Part shown: positions 1 to 16,420 of the stretch, in pieces
Layout of the letters: each line of letters starts with the position of its first letter
Position numbering within the stretch: the stretch's first letter is position 1
Origin: a virus
Lineage: Duplodnaviria > Caudoviricetes
Virus record (IMG/VR): IMGVR_UViG_2974663217_000001
Span: 5,062 to 69,061 of that record
Reading direction: 5' to 3' (one strand)
DNA length: 64,000 nt
The notes under the pieces: model-generated
Databases searched by the model: none
What the model saw: the letters and a program-made list of their open reading frames with translations, nothing else
What the model was told of the DNA's origin: nothing
Translations under genes and position numbers: made by a program

Positions 1-1104
1 AACGGGGGCTATGACGGGTGCGAGGGTGGGCTGCGTTGCCGTGGCACGTTGGTGTTCATGTATGACGAACCGGCCATGCCCCGGGACGATCCCAACCCCG
101 AGCCGTTGCCTCCGATTCCCCCGGCCCCGGAACCCAAGACCCCGGCAAAACCGAGGACCAGGAAAGAGGCGTTGGCGAAAGAACGCGCCGATAAGGAAGC
201 TGCGGAACCCTCCACGCCGGGGATGCCCCCGCAGCCCACCGGCACGCCCCCGAAACGGCGCAAGGGGCAGACTCAGCGCTACACCGCCATTGACCAGCTA
301 CCCGTGGACCATGAGCTTGCCCGGGACACGCCCATGCTTGTGGCGGCCAAGACCAACCCCGGCCATGACAAGAGCTATCGCACCAAGGTTTACAACAATA
401 ATTGCACCAGCGTGGCCAACGCCTACGAGTTCCAGCGGCGAGGGTATGACGTGAAAGCCGGCCCCGTCCCGGGCGGCAAGGGCAGGTTTGAACAAGAGTA
501 TGTGGAGCGCTGGTGGCGGGACGCTGACGGCGCCCCCGTCCGCTACACCCGGGTGGTGGACCTCCCGGAACCCAAGGGCAGGTTCACAAGTCACGGGCGG
601 GTTCGTGCGCAGCTTGCCGAGTGGGGCGCGGACTTGCCGGACGGCGCCCGTGGCTTCATTCAGTTGCATTGGACCAGCGGCGGCGGCCACGTCTTCAACT
701 GGGAGAAAGTGGGCGGCTCGATCACCTACCTAGAGGGCCAGAACGGGACGTGGGACGCGTCCGGGCACCTCGCTGACGGGAAGTTCCGCACCTCCACGGT
801 CAAGATTGTGCGCATGGACGATAAGACGCCCTTGGATATCGTCACGCAAGCATTCGAGAACCGCACCCCGGAATATCTGGCCGAGGTCAGCGGCGCCACG
901 GGCGTGGCCGGGGCTGCCCTGACCAGTGCCGAGAAAAAGGCCAAGTCAAAGTTCCGGATACGCAACGGTGTGGAGATTATCGCCCCGGAATTCCGGAAGA
1001 ACGCCAAGGGGCGGTGGGAACCAATCCCCGAGGAAGAACGCAAGGCCATGCTGGAAGAGTTCTATCGGGAGAACCCCCGGTGGAAACCTTTTGGGCGAGG
1101 CTAA
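1..1104 (+). CDS. MuF-like minor head protein (5' partial) with C-terminal papain-fold toxin domain (Tox-PL / glutamine deamidase-like)
   Basis: Frame is open from base 1 (NGGYDGCEGGLRCRGTLVF, a MuF C-terminal CxGGxRCRG motif). A Pro-rich linker follows, then NNNCTSVANAYEFQRRGYDVKA...RGFIQLHWTSGGGHVFNW...YLEGQ (Cys 403-405, His 688-690, Gln 739-741). Confidence 0.8.
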   Translation, partial: NGGYDGCEGGLRCRGTLVFMYDEPAMPRDDPNPEPLPPIPPAPEPKTPAKPRTRKEALAKERADKEAAEPSTPGMPPQPTGTPPKRRKGQTQRYTAIDQLPVDHELARDTPMLVAAKTNPGHDKSYRTKVYNNNCTSVANAYEFQRRGYDVKAGPVPGGKGRFEQEYVERWWRDADGAPVRYTRVVDLPEPKGRFTSHGRVRAQLAEWGADLPDGARGFIQLHWTSGGGHVFNWEKVGGSITYLEGQNGTWDASGHLADGKFRTSTVKIVRMDDKTPLDIVTQAFENRTPEYLAEVSGATGVAGAALTSAEKKAKSKFRIRNGVEIIAPEFRKNAKGRWEPIPEEERKAMLEEFYRENPRWKPFGRG

Positions 1105-1134
1105 AACAGGCACGCAAAGGCGGAAAATCAGGGT
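1103..1134 (+). promoter_or_regulatory. Class I phage promoter (AAAACAGGCAC box), leaderless, for the immunity-like gene
   Basis: AAAACAGGCAC at 1103-1113, 10 nt, AAAAT, 6 nt, ATG at 1135. Same spacing in 10 copies. Confidence 0.75.
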
Positions 1135-1440
1135 ATGACTACAACATTTGAGGAAGCACGCGCCATAGTCCTGGAACAGAACCGTGAGGGCTGGGAGGAA
1201 GACCACGAGGGCACCTTTACGGTGGCCGCCTACGGGTGGGAGGACGACGCCGGGTTCCTTGTGGTTCAGGGCGCCCATGAATGGCTGGTCGACGGTGACG
1301 AAACCTACAGCGTGATGGACGCCCCCGCCGTGTTCGTGTCCAAGGACGACGGAACAATCCTCGAGGCCGATTATCTGGACGTGGCCGACAGGATAGCGGC
1401 CATGACGCCCGTCCCCGGCCACGAGTACACCGAGGACTAA
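1135..1440 (+). CDS. Acidic protein, candidate immunity protein (Imm35/YrhB-like) for the MuF toxin
   Basis: Directly after the toxin ORF and very acidic. N-terminal TFEEARAIV and C-terminal PAVFVSKDDGTI resemble YrhB/Imm35 patterns (by eye, no HMM run). Confidence 0.55.
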   Translation: MTTTFEEARAIVLEQNREGWEEDHEGTFTVAAYGWEDDAGFLVVQGAHEWLVDGDETYSVMDAPAVFVSKDDGTILEADYLDVADRIAAMTPVPGHEYTED

Positions 1441-1451
1441 GCCAGCACCCC

Positions 1452-1490
1452 AAAGCGCCCCGCAGCCAACCCGGCTGTGGGGCGCTTTTC
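1452..1490 (+). terminator. Intrinsic terminator
   Basis: 16-bp stem AAAGCGCCCCGCAGCC / GGCTGTGGGGCGCTTT followed by T. Confidence 0.8.
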
Positions 1491-1505
1491 TGTGACATGG
1501 GCGCC

Positions 1506-1546
1506 CGTCCCACAGTCCCGGCTACACGGTGGGCATTATCGGGGCA
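1506..1546 (+). promoter_or_regulatory. Class II (late-type) promoter
   Basis: CGTCCCACAG at 1506, CATTAT at 1534-1539, predicted start site A1546, exactly 40 nt after the box start. Confidence 0.65.
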
Positions 1547-1577: not shown

Positions 1578-1841
1578 ATGCCCATCAAGCGAGGTGCAAA
1601 CGGGCGGTTCGTGGCCAACGGTGGGCGTGTTTCCGCCAAGGGCAAGGGCGCGGCTAAGGCGTCCGGCAAATCCGGCGGTTCCGCTGCTGCGCTGGCCAAG
1701 CGCGGCGTGGACCACATTCTTGCGCGCAAGGCCGCCGACGCCAAAAAGAAAAAGCCAACACGGGCACAGGCCCGGGCTGCCGCGTTGAAGAACGCGCAAG
1801 CCAAGATGCTGGCACAAGCCAACGCCAAGAACAAGCGGTAA
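1578..1841 (+). CDS. Small Lys/Arg/Ala-rich basic protein 1 (87 aa)
   Basis: RBS AGGAGG before ATG 1578. Begins MPIKRGANGRF; about 23 K/R versus 2 acidic residues. Confidence 0.8.
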   Translation: MPIKRGANGRFVANGGRVSAKGKGAAKASGKSGGSAAALAKRGVDHILARKAADAKKKKPTRAQARAAALKNAQAKMLAQANAKNKR

Positions 1842-1853
1842 GGAAGAAAGAGA

Positions 1854-2312
1854 ATGCCAGTTAGGCGAGATTCAAACGGACGGTTCGCCGGCAGCGGGGG
1901 CGGCTCTAAGCGCGCTTCCAGGGCGGCCAAGAAAATGGGCGCCGTAAAGCCGCGTTCGTCAAGCACTGGCCAGAATGCTGGCGCTGCCCTTTCCAAGGTT
2001 GCCGGCAAGGGGCGTGTGGGGCAGACGGCAAGCAAGATTGTGCGCACGCAGGGCGCCGCCAATAAGGCTGCACCCGCTAACTTCGACCGTGCCGCCCGTG
2101 ATCAGGCCATGGCCAAGCGCATGAACATGAACAAGAAAGCCGGTTTGGCTGGTGCTGCTTCCAAGAAAGCCAGCCTCACCCGCAGCCCGGACAAGCTGAA
2201 AGGCGGCCTCAAAAAGGCTGCTGCCGTCGCTGGCCGGGACGGAATCAAGGCCGAGGGGCTGAGGGCTACAACGGATAGCCGCGCCTACCGGCGCAAGCGG
2301 TCAAGGAAGTAG
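1854..2312 (+). CDS. Lys/Arg/Ala-rich basic protein 2
   Basis: Begins MPVRRDSNGRF; purine-rich RBS; paralog of its neighbours. Confidence 0.8.
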   Translation: MPVRRDSNGRFAGSGGGSKRASRAAKKMGAVKPRSSSTGQNAGAALSKVAGKGRVGQTASKIVRTQGAANKAAPANFDRAARDQAMAKRMNMNKKAGLAGAASKKASLTRSPDKLKGGLKKAAAVAGRDGIKAEGLRATTDSRAYRRKRSRK

Positions 2313-2321
2313 GGGAAAGCC

Positions 2322-2705
2322 ATGCCAGTGAAACGGGACGCTAACGGGCGGTTCACGTCCAGCGGGGGCACCAAGGTGGGCAGCCGTTCGGCCAAGCTCG
2401 CCAAGGTCAAGAAACACAAGACCGCTGTCCAGAACAACAAAAACGCCCAGCACAACCTCGCGCAGGTCCGCAAAAAGGCCGAAAAGGCCGATGATTTGGC
2501 GTGGCGCAAGGGTGACAAGGCAGCCATGGCCAAGACCGAGGCGCACCTCGCCAAGGTTGGCAAGGGCATGGACAAGCTGCTGGACAAGCAAAAGGCGCTT
2601 GGCCAGAAATCCAAGACGGGTGGCCGCAAGCTTGTGCCTTTCAAGCCCGAGGTGGCCAACAAAAAGGCACAAGTCAAAAAGCGCCGCGCAAAGGCGGGGA
2701 AGTAG
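2322..2705 (+). CDS. Lys-rich basic protein 3
   Basis: Begins MPVKRDANGRF; RBS AGGGGAAAG. Confidence 0.8.
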   Translation: MPVKRDANGRFTSSGGTKVGSRSAKLAKVKKHKTAVQNNKNAQHNLAQVRKKAEKADDLAWRKGDKAAMAKTEAHLAKVGKGMDKLLDKQKALGQKSKTGGRKLVPFKPEVANKKAQVKKRRAKAGK

Positions 2706-2711
2706 CACACC

Positions 2712-4145
2712 ATGGCTAAATTCAAGACTGTTGAAGCGGTCCCCTTGGTCAAGACGGGCACATGGAACGGCTCCACGGGTGAAAAGTCGATTACCAAGGA
2801 AGACTTGGAAGCAATCGTGGAGGCCCACCAGTCCAACGTTCTTGACAAGGGCGTGCTAAAAAAGGGTCACCTTGACCCCCGGCATGAGAACCCCACATGG
2901 GACGGCGAACCGGCCTACGGTCAGGTGGACAACCTCCGCTTGTCTGAGGACGGCGAAACGCTGCTTGGCGACTACGTGAACGTGCCTGAAGACTTGGCCG
3001 AATCGCTGCCGTCTGCGTACCCCAACAGGTCTGCGGAAATAGCGTGGGGCGTGAAGATCAAGGACGCCGCCGGCAAGGTCAAGAAAGAATTCAAGGCCGC
3101 GCTTGCCGGGGTTGCCCTGTTGGGGCGCACCCCTCCGGCGGTCAAGGGCTTGGGTGGCCCGGTGTCGGCGTTCTCTGCCGGGGCTGTGGAGTACGAAAGC
3201 ATTGGCGTGTTCTCCATGGTGTCCCAGTTCTCGCTCCCGGGCGGGTTGACGGCCAACGCTTTGCGGGAAGCGCTGTCGACGGCGATCACGGACCAGTTCA
3301 AGGGCACCAAGGCCACGGACTCCGAATATGCCGAGTGGCCGTGGATGGTGGACTATGACGACACCAAGGCGTGGTTCCGTTCCAACGGGGGCGTGTTCCA
3401 GGTTGGCTACACGGCATCCGAGGCCGGGGAAATCACGCTGAATGACGACGTGACCGAGGTAATCGAAAAGCGTTCTTTCGTTCCCGTGCCCGACACGGCC
3501 ACCGTCCCCCAAACACAGCTTTCTGAAAAGCAAGCTACCAACGTACAGGGCGCCGAAAGCGCCACCGATGAAGCTACTAGGGAGGAACCCTCCATGTCCG
3601 AGTACCTTAAGAAGCTCCGGGACAAGCTGGGCTTGCCTGACACGGCCACGGAGGAAGAAATCCTGACCGCTGCCGCTGAGGCTGTCCCCGCCCCCGAGGC
3701 TGAGGAATCCAACACTGAGACTGACGGCACCAAGCCCGAGGTCCAGGAACAGACCAACAACAGCGCTGGAAAGCACGCCGCTGTCCCCGCTGGTGACGGC
3801 ACCCCGGAAACCGTTGTGGTTTCCAAGGCTGCTTTTTCCGAGCTCATGAACACCAGCAAGCAGAACGCCGCCGAACTGGCCGCATTCCGCGAGGAAAAGC
3901 GCAAGGAACATGTGGCCAGCCTGGTGTCCCACTTCACCGCCACTGGCAAGATTCACCCCACCGAGGTTGGTTACTTCACCAACGCGCTGGACAAGAACGA
4001 AGCCGAAACCGTCGCCCATCTTGAGGCACGCGTCGGCATCCCCGTTTCCCCTGTCGGTTCGTCCGTCGCGGAAACGGTGTCATTCGGTGAGGGCGACGAC
4101 CTTTCCCCGGCGTTCGCATTCTTCAACCTGGAAGGTGGCAAGTAA
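2712..4145 (+). CDS. Capsid maturation protease with C-terminal scaffold region (Mu gpI-like)
   Basis: VKTGTW...GHLDP...PAYG...YPNRSAEI...LAGVALLG-TPPAVKGL motifs; acidic coiled C-terminal half; lies just before decoration and capsid genes. Confidence 0.85.
   Translation: MAKFKTVEAVPLVKTGTWNGSTGEKSITKEDLEAIVEAHQSNVLDKGVLKKGHLDPRHENPTWDGEPAYGQVDNLRLSEDGETLLGDYVNVPEDLAESLPSAYPNRSAEIAWGVKIKDAAGKVKKEFKAALAGVALLGRTPPAVKGLGGPVSAFSAGAVEYESIGVFSMVSQFSLPGGLTANALREALSTAITDQFKGTKATDSEYAEWPWMVDYDDTKAWFRSNGGVFQVGYTASEAGEITLNDDVTEVIEKRSFVPVPDTATVPQTQLSEKQATNVQGAESATDEATREEPSMSEYLKKLRDKLGLPDTATEEEILTAAAEAVPAPEAEESNTETDGTKPEVQEQTNNSAGKHAAVPAGDGTPETVVVSKAAFSELMNTSKQNAAELAAFREEKRKEHVASLVSHFTATGKIHPTEVGYFTNALDKNEAETVAHLEARVGIPVSPVGSSVAETVSFGEGDDLSPAFAFFNLEGGK
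3503..3543 (+). promoter_or_regulatory. Class II promoter internal to the protease gene
   Basis: CGTCCCCCAA at 3503, CAAGCT at 3531-3536, predicted start site 3543. Confidence 0.55.
3594..4145 (+). CDS. Nested in-frame scaffolding protein (Mu gpZ-like, 183 aa)
   Basis: In-frame ATG 3594 (MSEYLKKLRDKLGL) preceded by RBS AGGGAGGAA and an internal promoter. Confidence 0.65.
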   Translation: MSEYLKKLRDKLGLPDTATEEEILTAAAEAVPAPEAEESNTETDGTKPEVQEQTNNSAGKHAAVPAGDGTPETVVVSKAAFSELMNTSKQNAAELAAFREEKRKEHVASLVSHFTATGKIHPTEVGYFTNALDKNEAETVAHLEARVGIPVSPVGSSVAETVSFGEGDDLSPAFAFFNLEGGK

Positions 4146-4148
4146 GCC

Positions 4149-4529
4149 ATGGGCAAGTACGCAAACCCTACTGATATCGTCCGCGACCCGGGCAAGAACT
4201 ACACCGCCAAGGCTGGCGCTTCCGCTGTCCGCGGCTCGCGTTTCGTGTCTTTCATTGCCGGTGGAACCCGTCAGGTGCCCAAGGCTGCTGAGGCCACGGC
4301 AACCAGCGCGATTGTGGGCGTCTCCAAGTACGACGCAGCGGCAAACGATGAATTCGGCATCATCAAGGGCGGACATGCTGGCGTAATCGCCGGCGGCGCT
4401 GTCGCTGCCGGTGACCGGGTTGTGTCCGATGCCGAGGGCCGCGCCGTCAAGGCTGCGGACGGCGCGCCGTTCGCGGGTGTTGCCTACACCGACGCCGCAC
4501 TGGGCGCCGTCGTTTACATCGACTTCTAA
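4149..4529 (+). CDS. Head decoration / capsid cement protein (DUF2190-like)
   Basis: Small Gly/Ala-rich beta protein (GVSKYDAA...GAVAAGDRVVSDAEGRAV) between protease and capsid genes. Confidence 0.75.
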   Translation: MGKYANPTDIVRDPGKNYTAKAGASAVRGSRFVSFIAGGTRQVPKAAEATATSAIVGVSKYDAAANDEFGIIKGGHAGVIAGGAVAAGDRVVSDAEGRAVKAADGAPFAGVAYTDAALGAVVYIDF

Positions 4530-4555
4530 GCCAAAGAAAGGCACGGAAAAACCAA

Positions 4556-5452
4556 ATGACAACTGTCACTTACCCGCCGCAGGGCCCCACCGTCAACGGT
4601 CACCAGATCACTGTTGACTGGGCACTGAAGAACCCTACGTTCATTTCCAAGGCCGTAAGCCTCGCCGTTCAGGGCAAGTTCATTTCTGACTACATTTTCC
4701 GCGCTGGCGACGCCGCCGCGGGTGCTGTGGTCTACGAACGCACGCTTGGCCCGAACGAGAAGTACCCGGCCAAGGGCGACGTGGAAATCGTGGAGCCCGG
4801 GGACGAATTCCCGCTGGTGGACGTTGGCGAGGTTTCCAAGGAAACCGCTATCGTTGACAAGTTCGGTGCTGCTGCGCTGGTCACCTACGAACAGGTGCGC
4901 CGCAACCAGAAGGACAAGATCACTGAGGCAATCGTCAAGATTTCCAACGCGATCCTCCGCAAGACTGACAACCGCGCCATGGCCGCCCTCGCTGCGGACC
5001 CGGACAAGCTCACCGTGGCCGCTGCTGCCCCGTGGGGCACTGGCACACCGGACCCGTTCAGCGACATTGTGGGCGCTGTCGGTGTGGGCGAGGGCCAGGA
5101 ACTCGACTACAACTTCGATACCGTCCTGATCAACCCCACGGACGCCGCCAAGCTGCTCAAGAATCGCGATATCCGCGATCAGTTGCCGCGCGAGTCCACG
5201 GTGGCCAACCCGCTGCTGTCGGGCCGTCTTGAGGGGCTGGCCGGTCTGAACTGGATTCAGACCAACCGCAAGGCCGCTGGTTCGCTCTACATTCTGCAGC
5301 GCAACATCACGGGTGTTCACGCTGAGGAACTCAGCACCTACACCCGCAACATTGACGAGGCAGCCAACGAGCGCTGGCGCGTCCAGGGTGCCCGTGTTTC
5401 GGTGCCCATCATCACCGACCCCAAGTCCCTTATCGAACTGACGGGAATTTAG
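4556..5452 (+). CDS. Major capsid protein (HK97 fold)
   Basis: Position, 298 aa, and motifs VEPGDEFP, KFG-ALVTYE, DTVLINP. Confidence 0.85.
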   Translation: MTTVTYPPQGPTVNGHQITVDWALKNPTFISKAVSLAVQGKFISDYIFRAGDAAAGAVVYERTLGPNEKYPAKGDVEIVEPGDEFPLVDVGEVSKETAIVDKFGAAALVTYEQVRRNQKDKITEAIVKISNAILRKTDNRAMAALAADPDKLTVAAAAPWGTGTPDPFSDIVGAVGVGEGQELDYNFDTVLINPTDAAKLLKNRDIRDQLPRESTVANPLLSGRLEGLAGLNWIQTNRKAAGSLYILQRNITGVHAEELSTYTRNIDEAANERWRVQGARVSVPIITDPKSLIELTGI

Positions 5453-5454
5453 TC

Positions 5455-5877
5455 ATGACTCAGCGACGCCGCAGCGCTTCCGACGCCCTCAAAGGCGCCG
5501 AGGCCAAGGAAGAAACCCAGCCCGTAATCCCGGAAGCTCCCGAGGACGAAAAGCAGGGCGCAACCGAGGCTGAGGCGGACAAGAACGCCGCTGAGTCCAA
5601 GGCCGCCGCCGCTGACCCGGAAACGGGCAGCGGCGTCGCCGCCGGCAAGGTGGAGGTTGACGGCTCTATTGACGCCGCCGCCGCGGACGAATCCGAGGAC
5701 GTAGAGGAAGACGGCGAGGAAGACGGGCTGGTTGAGGCCACCGTCGTTATCGCCCTGTTCAACTACTTTGACGAAACCGACGCGCACTGTTCCGCGACCA
5801 AGGGCACCACGGTGCATGTTGACCGCGAAACAGCCGAGCGCGGCGTGAAGCTTGGCGCTATCAAGCTCACGGACTAA
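5455..5877 (+). CDS. Acidic low-complexity head-associated protein
   Basis: Tight spacing after the capsid gene; small C-terminal domain ending AERGVKLGAI. Confidence 0.7.
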   Translation: MTQRRRSASDALKGAEAKEETQPVIPEAPEDEKQGATEAEADKNAAESKAAAADPETGSGVAAGKVEVDGSIDAAAADESEDVEEDGEEDGLVEATVVIALFNYFDETDAHCSATKGTTVHVDRETAERGVKLGAIKLTD

Positions 5878-5895
5878 GCCCGAAAGGCTCGCATA

Positions 5896-6399
5896 ATGGC
5901 TGAGGCCGCAACGTGGGGAGTCAGCGTCGATGATGTTTCGGCGCTGGCCCCCCACATTGTTATTACCAACTCCGAGGCACCCGCGCCCACGGGAACCCCG
6001 GATCCCTACAACAGCACCACAGTGCGCAAGCTCACCACCATGCAAGTGCAACAGTTCATCAATGACATAACCGCCATGGTGGACATGCGGCTGCATGAGC
6101 GCGTAAGGATCACTGACGGCGTTTTCATTGCCAAGGTGGCTGCCGCGGCCAAGGACATTGTGACTAACGGCGCGGCTTCCTATCTGGTGTCCGCTGCGTT
6201 CCCCATGAAAGCTGGGCCGAACGAAAACACCAGCTACGCGGCGGAACTGTGGAACCGCTACAAGCTGGGGCTGGAAGAACTCGAAAAGGCGCTTGCCGCG
6301 TTCATCAAGGACGGCGAGGGGCTGGCCCCCAGCACTAAGCCGTCCGGCATAACGGGGTTCTTCCCAGCTGTCCGCATCCGGGATGACATGGGGTTTTAG
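5896..6399 (+). CDS. Head-to-tail adaptor
   Basis: Synteny; helical protein with the AAxLxxAxP pattern of adaptors. Confidence 0.6.
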   Translation: MAEAATWGVSVDDVSALAPHIVITNSEAPAPTGTPDPYNSTTVRKLTTMQVQQFINDITAMVDMRLHERVRITDGVFIAKVAAAAKDIVTNGAASYLVSAAFPMKAGPNENTSYAAELWNRYKLGLEELEKALAAFIKDGEGLAPSTKPSGITGFFPAVRIRDDMGF

Positions 6400-15073: not shown

Positions 15074-16420
15074 GTGGCTAGCAAACTGCTTGACGGTAAC
15101 AAGCTAAAGAACATATCCGTGACCGGCAAGGGCTTGGACGCGGACCTTGTGGAGGCTTGCCTCAAGGCGTCCTTTTCCACCAGCACCAGCCAAGTGACTG
15201 AGTTCTCTTTGACGTTCCTGGACACCATGGACTTGCAAACGTTCCGTTCGGGGATCCTCAGTTCGGGGGCCACGGTGAAGTATGGCGGCTGGCAAATGGT
15301 CAGCCGCGTGGTCACGGTGGCATCTGGCCCCGCCGGCCCGGAACTGACGGTCAAGGCGCCGTCAGCGTTCGTGGAGGGCTTCAAGTCCGAAATTGGCGGC
15401 AACTCGTGGGGTGATCAGGACGTTGCGGCGTGGGTGACAGCCCAAGCGAGGCGCCGGGACATGAACGCTGTTGTTCAGCCGGGGTTGGGCCGGAAAACCA
15501 TTATCCGGGCGGCCACTGACGGCGATAACAAGGAAAGCACTTGGGACGTTATGGCGGCCCTCGCCACGGCAACGGGGTGCTGGCTGTATGAGTACGGCAC
15601 GACGCTGGTTTTCGCGCGCCCGTCGTGGCTCATGAAAACGGACTGGGGCGGTAGGCATTGGGAACTGTGGTGGAACAACTGGGCCGACTACCACGAGGCC
15701 ATGCAAGGCATGCCCGGGTATTCGGTGGACCCGGGCGCTAACCCGGCGGAACAGTTGACCATTCGACTGCTGTCCCCCGACGCTGACGAGGCGCGGCCCG
15801 GGGACAAGGTGACCTTGACCGGCGCCGGGGTGGGTACCATGTCCGGGGCGTGGATCGTGGTAGGTGTCAGCTATCCCATGACCGTGGCCGGGGCGGTTAC
15901 CCTGTCATGCCAGCGGCCCATTGATCCGGTGATTCCTCCCGTGAACACTGGCACCGGCACCAGCGGTTCGGCGGCCAAGACCTCCACGGTGGTGAGCTCC
16001 GCAACAGGCAAGGCCGGGGCGGGTGCGAACACGTCCGGGGTGGATGGGTGGATGGCTCGCACCAAGGGCCGCTACGTGGACACGGACGGCGCTTATGGTG
16101 CGCAGTGCGTGGACTTGGTGAGCCTCTACAACACGCAATTTATCGGCGGCGGCGCGATCTTTGGCAACGGTAACCAGTGGTACAACAACCCGGCTGCCAA
16201 CGCCAACTATGTGCGCATCCCGGCGGGGCAGCGCGCCCAAAAGGGTGACATTGCTTGCTGGGGTTCGTACTACGGCGGCGGTTACGGGCACGTCTGCATT
16301 GTTGTGGAGGATAGGGGCGGTCAGCTCTACACGTTCACGCAGAACCCTGGCCCCGCCCAATATCAGGTACTCACGAAACAAGGGCTGCAGGGCTACCTCC
16401 GACCACGAAAGTTTGCCTAA
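15074..16420 (+). CDS. Baseplate hub protein with C-terminal CHAP peptidoglycan hydrolase
   Basis: Hub-like N-terminus; C-terminus DGAYGAQCVDL...GDIACW...YGHVCIV...TQNPG with intact Cys/His. Confidence 0.85.
   Translation: MASKLLDGNKLKNISVTGKGLDADLVEACLKASFSTSTSQVTEFSLTFLDTMDLQTFRSGILSSGATVKYGGWQMVSRVVTVASGPAGPELTVKAPSAFVEGFKSEIGGNSWGDQDVAAWVTAQARRRDMNAVVQPGLGRKTIIRAATDGDNKESTWDVMAALATATGCWLYEYGTTLVFARPSWLMKTDWGGRHWELWWNNWADYHEAMQGMPGYSVDPGANPAEQLTIRLLSPDADEARPGDKVTLTGAGVGTMSGAWIVVGVSYPMTVAGAVTLSCQRPIDPVIPPVNTGTGTSGSAAKTSTVVSSATGKAGAGANTSGVDGWMARTKGRYVDTDGAYGAQCVDLVSLYNTQFIGGGAIFGNGNQWYNNPAANANYVRIPAGQRAQKGDIACWGSYYGGGYGHVCIVVEDRGGQLYTFTQNPGPAQYQVLTKQGLQGYLRPRKFA

Follow-up and report, generated by a model that had tools for sequence, protein, structure and literature searches.

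At the beginning of the analyzed stretch of DNA (64,000 nucleotides; hereafter, the window), a gene pair was found that is probably a toxin/immunity cassette in the head module of a lytic Klausavirus-like (cluster AR) Arthrobacter myophage. In the reading that we favor, a MuF-like head protein bears a C-terminal Tox-PL1 toxin and the adjacent gene (imm) encodes an Imm35-like inhibitor; the toxin would be injected into the host and its antidote would be produced early. This reading as a whole is held with moderate confidence.

The first ORF of the window (1–1104) is the 3′ part of a 643-aa gene at positions 4234–6165 of the record (window positions are record positions minus 5061), and the start of this gene lies 828 nt upstream of the window. 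The gene is located in the head module directly 3′ of a Mu-type portal gene, in the order TerL (PF03237), portal (PF06074, E 5e-52), MuF-toxin gene, imm and the Mu gpI-like protease/scaffold gene. Within the window, its product consists of a Cys-rich MuF-like end, a Pro-rich linker and a PF15644 domain. The features of the locus are listed in Table 1.

Table 1. Features of the toxin/immunity locus and related genes (window coordinates)
Feature	Position	Strand	Details
C-terminal end of MuF-like head-protein domain, Cys-rich motif	1–72	+	aa 1–24 of the window ORF
Pro-rich, basic linker	73–315	+	19 Pro in 76 aa, pI 9.8
Tox-PL1/Gln_amidase papain-fold domain	316–834	+	PF15644 above cut-off, conserved columns, AF2 fold
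C-terminal extension: small beta-meander and helix, then basic tail	922–1101	+	model residues 226–274
Class I phage promoter (predicted)	1103–1134	+	box AAAACAGGCAC at 1103–1113, -10-like GAAAAT at 1123–1128
Imm35-like immunity/inhibitor gene (putative)	1135–1440	+	phrog_3585 match, linkage to Tox-PL1
Intrinsic terminator closing the portal-MuF-imm unit	1452–1493	+	hairpin 1452–1488 and T-run
Class II (virion-gene) promoter (predicted)	1506–1546	+	box CGTCCCACA, conserved -10-like CATTAT
Three basic proteins	1578–2705		
Mu gpI-like protease/scaffold gene	2712–4145		
CHAP domain in tail gene	16082–16345		

The full MuF-toxin protein matched phrog_595 (E 5.6e-80), and its relatives are annotated as 'MuF-like minor capsid protein', the homolog in the phage ArV1 being annotated as 'putative structural protein'. 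In the ESM Atlas, the clusters closest to the first 300 aa carry PF04233 (score 0.95, 170 shared features). A search with the Pfam model PF04233 itself gave no match on the full protein at E up to 0.1 and a weak match on the Jawnski homolog (E 0.17), and the hhalign comparison of the N-terminus with the Phage_min_cap2 and VG15 sets was also weak (E 0.02–0.04). The Pro-rich linker, which had been described in the initial sequence-only reading of this DNA, is present and is probably disordered. The identity to relatives shifts across the linker and its length differs among them, and this is likely the zone where recombination separates the MuF part from the toxin cassette.

The Pfam family PF15644 was found at aa 133–249 of the window ORF (E 1.2e-7, 33.2 bits, cut-off 24.1); the score was 30.8 bits with the full protein and 35.9 bits in a six-frame search (record-wide E 7.3e-10). 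Among the three Pfam families proposed for checking in the sequence-only reading, PF15644 was recovered above its cut-off, whereas PF15567 (Imm35) remained below its cut-off and PF04233 did not match. The same reading had proposed an intact set of Cys, His and Gln. All three residues (Cys at nt 403–405, His at 688–690 and Gln at 739–741, which correspond to C52, H147 and Q164 of the alignment A2) do occupy conserved columns: in the alignment of 95 relatives, the H and Q columns show no variation and N-C reaches at least 90% conservation. However, the Tox-PL1 signature is NC-H-DxQ (Zhang 2012, PMC3482391), so that the third catalytic position is D and the Gln is its conserved neighbor. The domain carries this signature with D replaced by Glu (nt 733–735; LEGQ), a conservative change.

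An AF2 model was made on the natural in-frame read-through (toxin, 11 codons, imm). Its mean pLDDT was 86, with values mostly above 90 in the toxin domain. All the top VIA-align matches of the toxin model were papain-fold enzymes: with model residues 23–195, SpvD scored Z 10.6 over 157 residues, OspI Z 8.8 over 142 residues, the C39 peptidase domains of ComA and PCAT1 Z 8.3–8.4 and staphopain Z 7.5. Foldseek against the PDB gave weak rows (E at least 0.038), and it took VIA-align to assign the fold. PDB sequence searches with a single sequence and with a profile gave no match for the toxin region and no more than noise for imm, and an NCBIfam search gave no match for either protein. Taken together, the Pfam match and the modeled fold agree with the earlier assignment of a Tox-PL1-like domain and suggest a cysteine hydrolase with a papain fold that acts as a peptidase or as a glutamine deamidase, as part of the reading that we consider probable.

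The small beta-meander and helix downstream of this domain were modeled with a pLDDT of about 71–94. This extension is covered by only the top ~12 representatives, which form a phage-borne clade, and its identity tracks that of the toxin and imm and not that of the MuF N-terminus, i.e., it is co-inherited with the cassette.

A papain fold is also compatible with a virion-borne cell-wall amidase of the NlpC/P60 or CHAP type serving entry, and the T6SS amidase effectors Ssp1 and Tae4 did appear low among the VIA-align matches (Z about 5). The best structural matches, however, are effectors and peptidases that act in the cytoplasm, a CHAP domain is already present in a tail gene of this phage, a location inside the head is wrong for a wall enzyme, and the partner protein lacks an export signal. 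A cell-wall function is therefore extremely unlikely. No signal peptide was found in the imm sequence, and thus the target of the toxin is probably cytoplasmic.

The domain could instead be a morphogenetic or auto-processing peptidase of the prohead, which would, for example, release the C-terminal end of MuF or trim the three downstream basic proteins, with imm as a timing inhibitor or chaperone. The presence of C39-type leader peptidases among the top structural matches is in line with this, SEA-PHAGES annotators name homologs 'capsid maturation protease', and a processing role for MuF-fused Tox-PL1 was raised by Zhang 2012 (PMC3482391). Against it, the phage has a separate gene for a Mu gpI-like protease/scaffold, and the closest non-phage relatives of the domain occur in WXG100, CdiA, eCIS and ADP-ribosyltransferase multi-toxin proteins. 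At least 43 of the 95 closest relatives have N-termini of phage head proteins (VG15, 22; Phage_min_cap2, 15; Phage_Mu_F, 6), which is in favor of the head-module toxin/immunity cassette. The evidence from divergence, given below, also bears on this alternative.

The imm product is, as had been noted before, a 101-aa acidic protein (pI 4.05, 25 acidic and 4 basic residues), complementary in charge to the toxin with its pI of 9.2. It matched phrog_3585 'immunity protein' with E 8.5e-32. The Pfam Imm35 model (PF15567) scored 13.9 bits, below the cut-off of 27.5, and matched 5 of the 14 imm homologs, with a best E of 0.0022 and none above the cut-off. The alignment of the phage imm profile with E. 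coli YrhB using hhalign gave a probability of 73.9% (E 2.8e-5, 41 columns) and revealed the common motifs ARE-x-L-x2-GD and DK-x-[ST]G. In the ESM Atlas, Imm35 was found in 24 of the 30 nearest clusters (Imm35/YrhB; score 0.90, 209 shared features). These results allow us to assume that imm is a distant relative of Imm35/YrhB; it is named Imm35-like, and not a confirmed family member, because its Pfam score is below the cut-off. Structural matches of the imm model were weak (best Z 5.7) and mixed, including YebF, DUF4467, PepSY, cystatins and T6SS immunity proteins, so that modeling gives no more than a hint of a PepSY or cystatin-like inhibitor fold. A word-based protein search found just 2 imm relatives, and a pattern-limited scan of 185,579 species genomes found no relative of the imm family.

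The strong acidity of the protein, its sub-threshold Imm35 score and a promoter class that it has in common with two DNA methylases could be explained if imm were unrelated to the toxin and encoded an anti-restriction/DNA-mimic protein or another host-takeover factor. This was found to be very unlikely in view of the three independent leads to Imm35/YrhB (the Imm35 profile on homologs, hhalign and the ESM Atlas) and, above all, of the genetic linkage. Upstream of the imm homolog, a Tox-PL1 domain is encoded at each of the 14 loci, even where imm identity is as low as 32%, so the occurrence of imm in relatives that lack the toxin domain, which would have spoken against the sequence-only reading, was not seen. 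In 13 of these IMG/VR loci imm is immediately 3′ of Tox-PL1, and in the 14th it lies about 830 nt 3′. The annotated phages Jawnski, Vibaki, Hirko and TaeYoung also carry the pair. Translational coupling is seen in several pairs, and in Marthavirus and Vibakivirus the toxin and imm genes overlap as ATGA.

The assignment of imm as the partner of the toxin also agrees with the co-divergence of the two genes. Pairwise identities within the genus correlated with r 0.97 for the toxin versus imm and with r 0.37 for the MuF N-terminus versus imm. Compared with PrincessTrina and Lymara, the MuF N-terminus is 86% identical, the toxin 60% and imm 54–56%, whereas compared with KBurrousTX the MuF N-terminus is 75% identical and the toxin and imm 87–90%. 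More generally, the toxin and imm are 54–66% identical where the MuF N-terminus is 78–87% identical, and the relation is reversed for KBurrousTX. The record therefore represents a new combination of alleles, with a PrincessTrina-like portal and MuF N-terminus and a KBurrousTX-like toxin/imm cassette. Since the identities of the toxin and imm covary apart from that of the MuF N-terminus, the cassette moves as a unit.

This variation is at the allele level. Every relative carries Tox-PL1 as the C-terminal toxin family, and the retention of one domain family across three genera, with no swap to other toxin types, departs from the pattern of classic polymorphic toxins and could point to a core role in assembly, as expected for a prohead peptidase. 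However, divergence is faster in the toxin and imm than in the head genes on either side, and the two are exchanged together as one cassette; a conflict system therefore fits better than an assembly enzyme. The prohead peptidase is thus regarded as unlikely, and the toxin/immunity cassette is preferred.

The sequence-only reading had also placed a class I promoter over the stop codon of the toxin gene and a terminator after imm, and both were supported. The box AAAACAGGCAC overlaps the toxin TAA stop (1102–1104), an A-N3-T element is found at 1123–1128, and the imm ATG lies 6 nt beyond it, so that a leaderless transcript starting at the A of this ATG (position 1135) is predicted. The class I pattern occurs in 11 copies in the window, all on the plus strand, against 0.01 expected. 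With the exception of the copy before imm, all of them lie in the non-structural arm; among the genes that they precede are those of C5 and N6/N4 methylases and the SNF2 helicase operon. KBurrousTX, Colucci, ArV1, Lymara and PrincessTrina preserve the box, the spacing and the reading frame, and in a sixth, metagenomic relative the box is retained with an out-of-frame gap of 34 nt. The terminator hairpin (dG -38.7 kcal/mol, z -6.97) shows stem covariation in 7 genomes, i.e., the sequence differs while the pairing is kept, and a T-run follows.

The class II box CGTCCCACA downstream of the terminator is invariant in 7 genomes. It occurs 9 times in the window, where 2.6 copies are expected, and its plus-strand copies up to 26.7 kb lie in the virion arm. 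This promoter is predicted to drive the next head genes from position 1578. The order of the two classes, class I before class II, is deduced only from the genes that each box precedes. The scan with sigma-70 and terminator consensus sequences missed both promoter classes and the terminator. The 11-mer GGCATCCGAGG near position 1544 was considered as a shared promoter element and proved not to be one.

Searches of the 99%-complete record for an integrase, a resolvase or a large serine recombinase found none, which agrees with the earlier statement that no lysogeny module is visible, and cluster AR phages are reported to be lytic. A mechanism can be proposed for such a phage. The MuF part would build a few copies of the toxin into the capsid, and the packaged toxin would enter the next host together with the DNA, where the enzyme would modify a target in the cytoplasm. 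The acidic Imm35-like protein would bind and block the Tox-PL1 enzyme. In the Klausavirus-like genus, imm appears to be under its own leaderless class I promoter, of a class otherwise used by methylases, the SNF2 helicase and non-structural genes, and the inhibitor is therefore expected to be in place by the time that the late portal-MuF transcript yields much toxin. This late transcript would also read through imm to the terminator. The inhibitor would in addition be expected to quench toxin brought by the same phage or by a superinfecting one that carries the same allele.

A more specific version, in which the Tox-PL1 enzyme injected by a strictly lytic phage is a timed effector that works on a host cytoplasmic target during the first minutes after entry and is then switched off by an inhibitor from a middle-class leaderless promoter, with alleles acting as incompatibility groups, is tentative and rather unlikely. 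If it were true, at least 4 toxin/imm allele groups in the genus would define incompatibility groups; the infected cell would neutralize the toxin of superinfecting kin but would be open to that of other alleles, and co-infection by non-kin would poison the factory of the resident phage.

The novelty of the locus had been overstated in the sequence-only reading: MuF fused to Tox-PL1 and the link to Imm35 were published in 2012, and the sister phages are already annotated. The pair is of a known kind and the identification of the genes is ordinary. KBurrousTX gp5/gp6 are direct homologs of the MuF-toxin and imm proteins (77% and 90% identity), the note of gp6 being 'Antitoxin, imm35 Domain Protein'; the PrincessTrina homologs are 69% and 56% identical, and imm homologs bear the RefSeq label 'immunity protein'. 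Unlike here, no promoter separates the two genes of the translationally coupled Marthavirus and Vibakivirus pairs. According to PMC11699363, what MuF-fused toxins do biologically is still unknown, and the main model, based on a benefit to the lysogen, is inapplicable here because the phage has no lysogeny. This lytic genus offers many archived isolates and a culturable, non-pathogenic host, Arthrobacter sp. ATCC 21022. It also offers natural contrasts, namely several toxin/imm alleles, a genus-specific antidote promoter and sister genera with a translationally coupled pair, which let phage genetics ask if head-borne toxins serve infection through host takeover, assembly control or rival exclusion.

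A comparison with characterized systems indicated both similarities and differences. Imm35 was described as a Tox-PL1-specific immunity family and a proposed peptidase inhibitor (Zhang, Aravind et al. 2012, PMC3482391). As in the cases of that study, the N-terminus of a phage head protein is fused here to Tox-PL1 with the NC-H-DxQ signature. However, those cases were prophage remnants in bacterial genomes and the present one is a complete lytic myophage; in addition, its imm has its own promoter and belongs to a divergent branch that is restricted to phages and scores below the Pfam cut-off, and the D of DxQ is Glu. SpvD and OspI, the closest solved folds to the toxin domain, have just 10–14% sequence identity to it. 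Both are type III effectors against eukaryotic proteins and OspI is a glutamine deamidase, but the common fold does not give the substrate.

The MuF polymorphic toxins of Jamet et al. 2017 (PMC5576092) likewise have a MuF N-terminus, a C-terminal toxin and an adjacent small immunity gene, and were hypothesized to be loaded in the capsid and injected. That survey recorded 0 virulent phages with a known MuF toxin domain, and its systems belong to temperate phages, whereas the genus studied here lacks an integrase, is reported to be lytic and varies by alleles of one toxin family rather than by family swaps. Apk2 and Bxa are characterized MuF toxins, and MuF-glutamine deamidase homologs with a predicted immunity partner were reported in 2024 (PMC11699363). 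MuF-VIP2 ADP-ribosyltransferase fusions, predicted to be a virion component, are known from lytic Microbacterium phages (Jacobs-Sera et al. 2020, PMC7302621). Like the present phage, these carry a toxin domain on MuF and have no temperate features. Their toxin fold is different, and neither an immunity gene nor a dedicated promoter is described in the part of that paper cited here.

The 69,061 bp virus record, which contains the window as bases 5062–69061 and is 99% complete according to CheckV, was 82–85% identical at the DNA level to the cluster AR Arthrobacter myophages of the genus Klausavirus (KBurrousTX, PrincessTrina, ArV1). The 5 kb preceding the window contain two short ORFs (219 and 217 aa, the latter with weak HTH matches), the large terminase gene, a Mu-type portal gene (PF06074, E 5e-52) and then a 643-aa gene, the toxin gene, whose 3′ part opens the window. 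Searches of the record found no domain of a tyrosine integrase, a resolvase or a large serine recombinase, and cluster AR has been described as lytic, with Galaxy as the sole temperate phage of that collection. Thus, the earlier remark that this phage has no visible lysogeny module was borne out.

Positions of the toxin–immunity locus and of related features (window coordinates unless stated otherwise)
Feature	Position	Strand	Description
Toxin gene, 643 aa	record 4234–6165		last 367 codons form the window ORF
Window ORF	1–1104		Cys-rich end of head-protein domain, then 76-aa stretch with 19 prolines, then PF15644
Cys52, His147, Gln164	403, 688, 739		toxin domain residues
C-terminal extension	922–1101		region past the papain domain
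Junction class I box	1103–1113	+	between toxin gene and imm
imm	1135–1440		101 aa, pI 4.05
Three tandem genes	1578–2705		very basic proteins
Mu gpI-like gene	2712–4145		probable protease-scaffold fusion
CHAP domain	16082–16345		PF05257
Other class I sites	38069, 41671, 44317, 45427, 47183, 49240, 51304, 53103, 60490, 61981	+	window 38069–62005
ATGA overlaps	L006:5178, L007:4989, L008:5001, L022:3001, L023:2989		loci of Marthavirus/Vibakivirus phages
Spaced imm homolog	L027:1627–3264		one 42.6-kb viral contig

The profile PF15644 (Gln_amidase, "papain fold toxin 1", or Tox-PL1), proposed as a check in the sequence-only reading, matched residues 133–249 of the window ORF with 33.2 bits against a Pfam cut-off of 24.1, and a six-frame search found a single copy in the whole record (E 7.3e-10). 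When 1.8 billion cluster representatives were searched in full with HMMER, 1347 relatives of the domain came up at E ≤ 1e-3. In an alignment of the domain with 94 of the closest relatives, His147, Gln164, Arg134, Arg188 and Asp190 were invariant and Asn51-Cys52 was at least 90% conserved. The Cys-His-Gln set named earlier consists of these conserved residues, but its Gln is a conserved neighbour; the third catalytic residue corresponds to the D of the published Tox-PL1 signature NC-H-DxQ (Zhang et al. 2012, PMC3482391), which is replaced by Glu in the phage toxin.

Modeling of the toxin region gave a mean pLDDT of 86.2, mostly above 90 in the papain core. Foldseek by itself returned weak matches, and the model was placed using an all-against-representatives structural search, which found SpvD (Z 10.6 over 157 residues) and the glutamine deamidase OspI (Z 8.8), followed by C39 leader peptidases (Z 8.3–8.4) and then staphopains, SpeB, AvrPphB and a CdiA-CT toxin. 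The model thus groups with papain-fold enzymes, as had been predicted. The pI of the toxin domain is 9.2. Past this domain there is an extra region of ~80 aa (a beta-meander and a helix, then a basic tail), which is confined to the closest phage relatives and tracks the toxin/imm alleles, not the MuF part.

The N-terminus of the toxin gene is probably MuF-like, although the Pfam MuF model (PF04233) did not match it and small profile–profile comparisons with the Phage_min_cap2 and VG15 sets gave weak results. The earlier MuF assignment is supported by the position directly after the portal gene, a phrog_595 match (E 5.6e-80), language-model neighbours of residues 1–300 in PF04233 clusters (score 0.95) and homologs annotated "MuF-like minor capsid protein". 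Among the 95 closest toxin-domain relatives, VG15 was found at the N-terminus of 22, Phage_min_cap2 of 15 and Phage_Mu_F of 6, so this Tox-PL1 branch is typically fused to phage head proteins.

The downstream gene, imm, was earlier assigned to the Imm35/YrhB type. Its Pfam Imm35 (PF15567) score of 13.9 bits is below the cut-off of 27.5, and 5 of 14 imm homologs gave the same weak match (best E 0.0022). However, the imm-family profile aligned with E. coli YrhB, the Imm35 archetype (74% probability, E 2.8e-5), with the common motifs ARE-x-L-x2-GD and DK-x-[ST]G; the language-model neighbours of imm were actinobacterial Imm35/YrhB clusters, and PHROGs placed it in phrog_3585, "immunity protein" (E 8.5e-32). 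A model of imm alone (pLDDT 92, pTM 0.84) consisted of a long helix, a sheet of four strands and another helix; structural matches were too weak for naming a fold family.

All 14 IMG/VR loci with an imm homolog carry a Tox-PL1 domain upstream, immediately in 13 and ~830 nt away in one, and the linkage also occurs in Jawnski, Vibaki, Hirko and TaeYoung. The refuting case named in the sequence-only reading, imm kept in relatives without the toxin domain, was therefore not found among these loci, and this linkage is stronger evidence for the identity of imm than the profile and structure matches. It also makes it very improbable that imm is an unrelated acidic anti-restriction protein. In the spaced locus, the imm homolog has 32% identity, and an extra domain or gene may lie in between.

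The 11-mer AAAACAGGCAC, the class I promoter box, has 9 copies in the record. A relaxed search, permitting G/A at one position and requiring a downstream A-N3-T element, yielded 11 window sites, each on the + strand, where 0.01 would be expected. Ten of them are located at 38–62 kb in the non-structural arm, two being variants with AAACAAGCAC, and most lead straight into an ATG without a leader. The genes behind them include C5 and N6/N4 DNA methylases (Pfam) and, within the unit behind the 53103 box, a SNF2-type helicase; the rest had no Pfam identification. The eleventh site includes the toxin TAA stop. In 6 of the 9 exact copies, including this one, the ATG lies 6 nt past the A-N3-T element, at the predicted transcript start, as in a leaderless promoter. 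KBurrousTX, Colucci, ArV1, Lymara and PrincessTrina share the box, the 30-nt gap and the reading frame despite differing flanking sequence, and a metagenomic relative has the box with a 34-nt gap. These data support the proposal that imm has its own leaderless class I promoter overlapping the toxin stop.

The terminator reported after imm was also recovered, as a hairpin of 16 bp followed by a T-run (dG −38.7 kcal/mol, z −7.0), whose arms vary in sequence and retain pairing across seven genomes. It is followed by the invariant class II box CCGTCCCACA, which also precedes the portal and other virion genes. No terminator was found between the toxin gene and imm, so imm should be part of the late transcript as well; since no obvious ribosome-binding site for imm was found on it, the leaderless class I transcript is probably the source of most of the inhibitor. 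We infer from gene content that class I is active earlier than class II.

In phages of Marthavirus and Vibakivirus, the toxin stop and the imm start share the sequence ATGA, an arrangement indicative of translational coupling. This forms a natural contrast to the promoter-driven imm of Klausavirus, so that the promoter before imm is a feature of the Klausavirus group alone.

Three tandem genes separate the class II box from the Mu gpI-like gene; they encode proteins of 87, 152 and 127 aa (pI 11–12), which belong to PHROG families without assigned function and have in common just an N-terminal MP[IV][KR]R-x2-NGRF tag. One possibility is that these proteins are internal to the head and that the tag serves for targeting; RKNAKGRW in the toxin extension loosely resembles it. 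The Mu gpI-like gene is called "scaffolding protein" in relatives; the C-terminal half of its product matches Mu gpI (PF10123), and PHROGs named "head maturation protease" match along its length. The CHAP domain (E 5.7e-14) lies in a 449-aa frame starting soon after the tape-measure gene, and its product is probably a virion-borne wall hydrolase.

Identity to PrincessTrina and Lymara is ~86% for the portal and MuF N-terminus but 60% for the toxin domain, 44–47% for the extension and 54–56% for imm. For KBurrousTX the pattern is reversed, namely 75–79% for the portal and MuF N-terminus and 87–90% for toxin, extension and imm. Across 21 genome pairs within the genus, which are non-independent and make the coefficients descriptive, imm identity correlated with that of the toxin at r 0.97 and with that of the MuF N-terminus at r 0.37. 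At least four toxin/imm allele groups were distinguished. Such a pattern is expected if toxin and cognate antidote are exchanged together, the breakpoint lying in the linker. Swapped pairs, which the earlier reading proposed to look for in related phages, were thus found at the allele level; no different toxin family occurred among the relatives, so the system is polymorphic in alleles only.

The fixed toxin family would suit the main rival explanation, an assembly or auto-processing peptidase, which was suggested by Zhang et al. 2012 (PMC3482391). Two points speak against it, the existence of a distinct Mu gpI-like protease/scaffold gene and the way the cassette evolves, which is of the conflict type, and we regard it as unlikely. 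A wall amidase with a papain fold is the least probable, because the imm partner lacks an export signal and a CHAP domain is already present in the tail. Overall, the toxin is rather likely a head-borne, probably injected cysteine hydrolase that would act in the cytoplasm, with its cognate acidic inhibitor produced ahead of it. The observations of the sequence-only reading were confirmed in nearly every detail, and its interpretation of the toxin/antidote pair seems reasonable.

Tox-PL1 and its MuF fusion in phage-derived loci were described by Zhang et al. 2012 (PMC3482391), along with Imm35 as a Tox-PL1-specific immunity family, likely a peptidase inhibitor. MuF polymorphic toxins were defined by Jamet et al. 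2017 (PMC5576092), who suggested that they are loaded into the capsid and injected, and who reported a known MuF toxin domain in no virulent phage; Jacobs-Sera et al. 2020 (PMC7302621) described MuF-VIP2 fusions in lytic Microbacterium phages. Bxa was characterised in a 2024 study (PMC11699363), which also mentions MuF-glutamine deamidase homologs accompanied by predicted immunity partners and calls the role of MuF toxins in biology unknown. The toxin domain was found in 137 phage records (70 Arthrobacter phages, 61 mycobacteriophages). Among the mycobacteriophage matches listed (29–34% identity; records under hits H85–H102), the genes lie near the left genome end, e.g., gene 3 of Mycobacterium phage Echild, and are annotated "VIP2-like toxin", a few as hypothetical; a tblastn search with imm (E ≤ 1e-3) found no homolog in mycobacteriophages. 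An incomplete literature search found no paper on a promoter before the antidote gene or on allele exchange. Systems of this kind were known before, and sister phages already carry annotations of the pair: GenBank notes KBurrousTX gp6 as "Antitoxin, imm35 Domain Protein", and RefSeq names imm homologs "immunity protein". What this locus adds is a promoter that overlaps the toxin stop codon, the contrast to sister genera with a translationally coupled pair, cassette exchange at the allele level and the strictly lytic setting of the pair.
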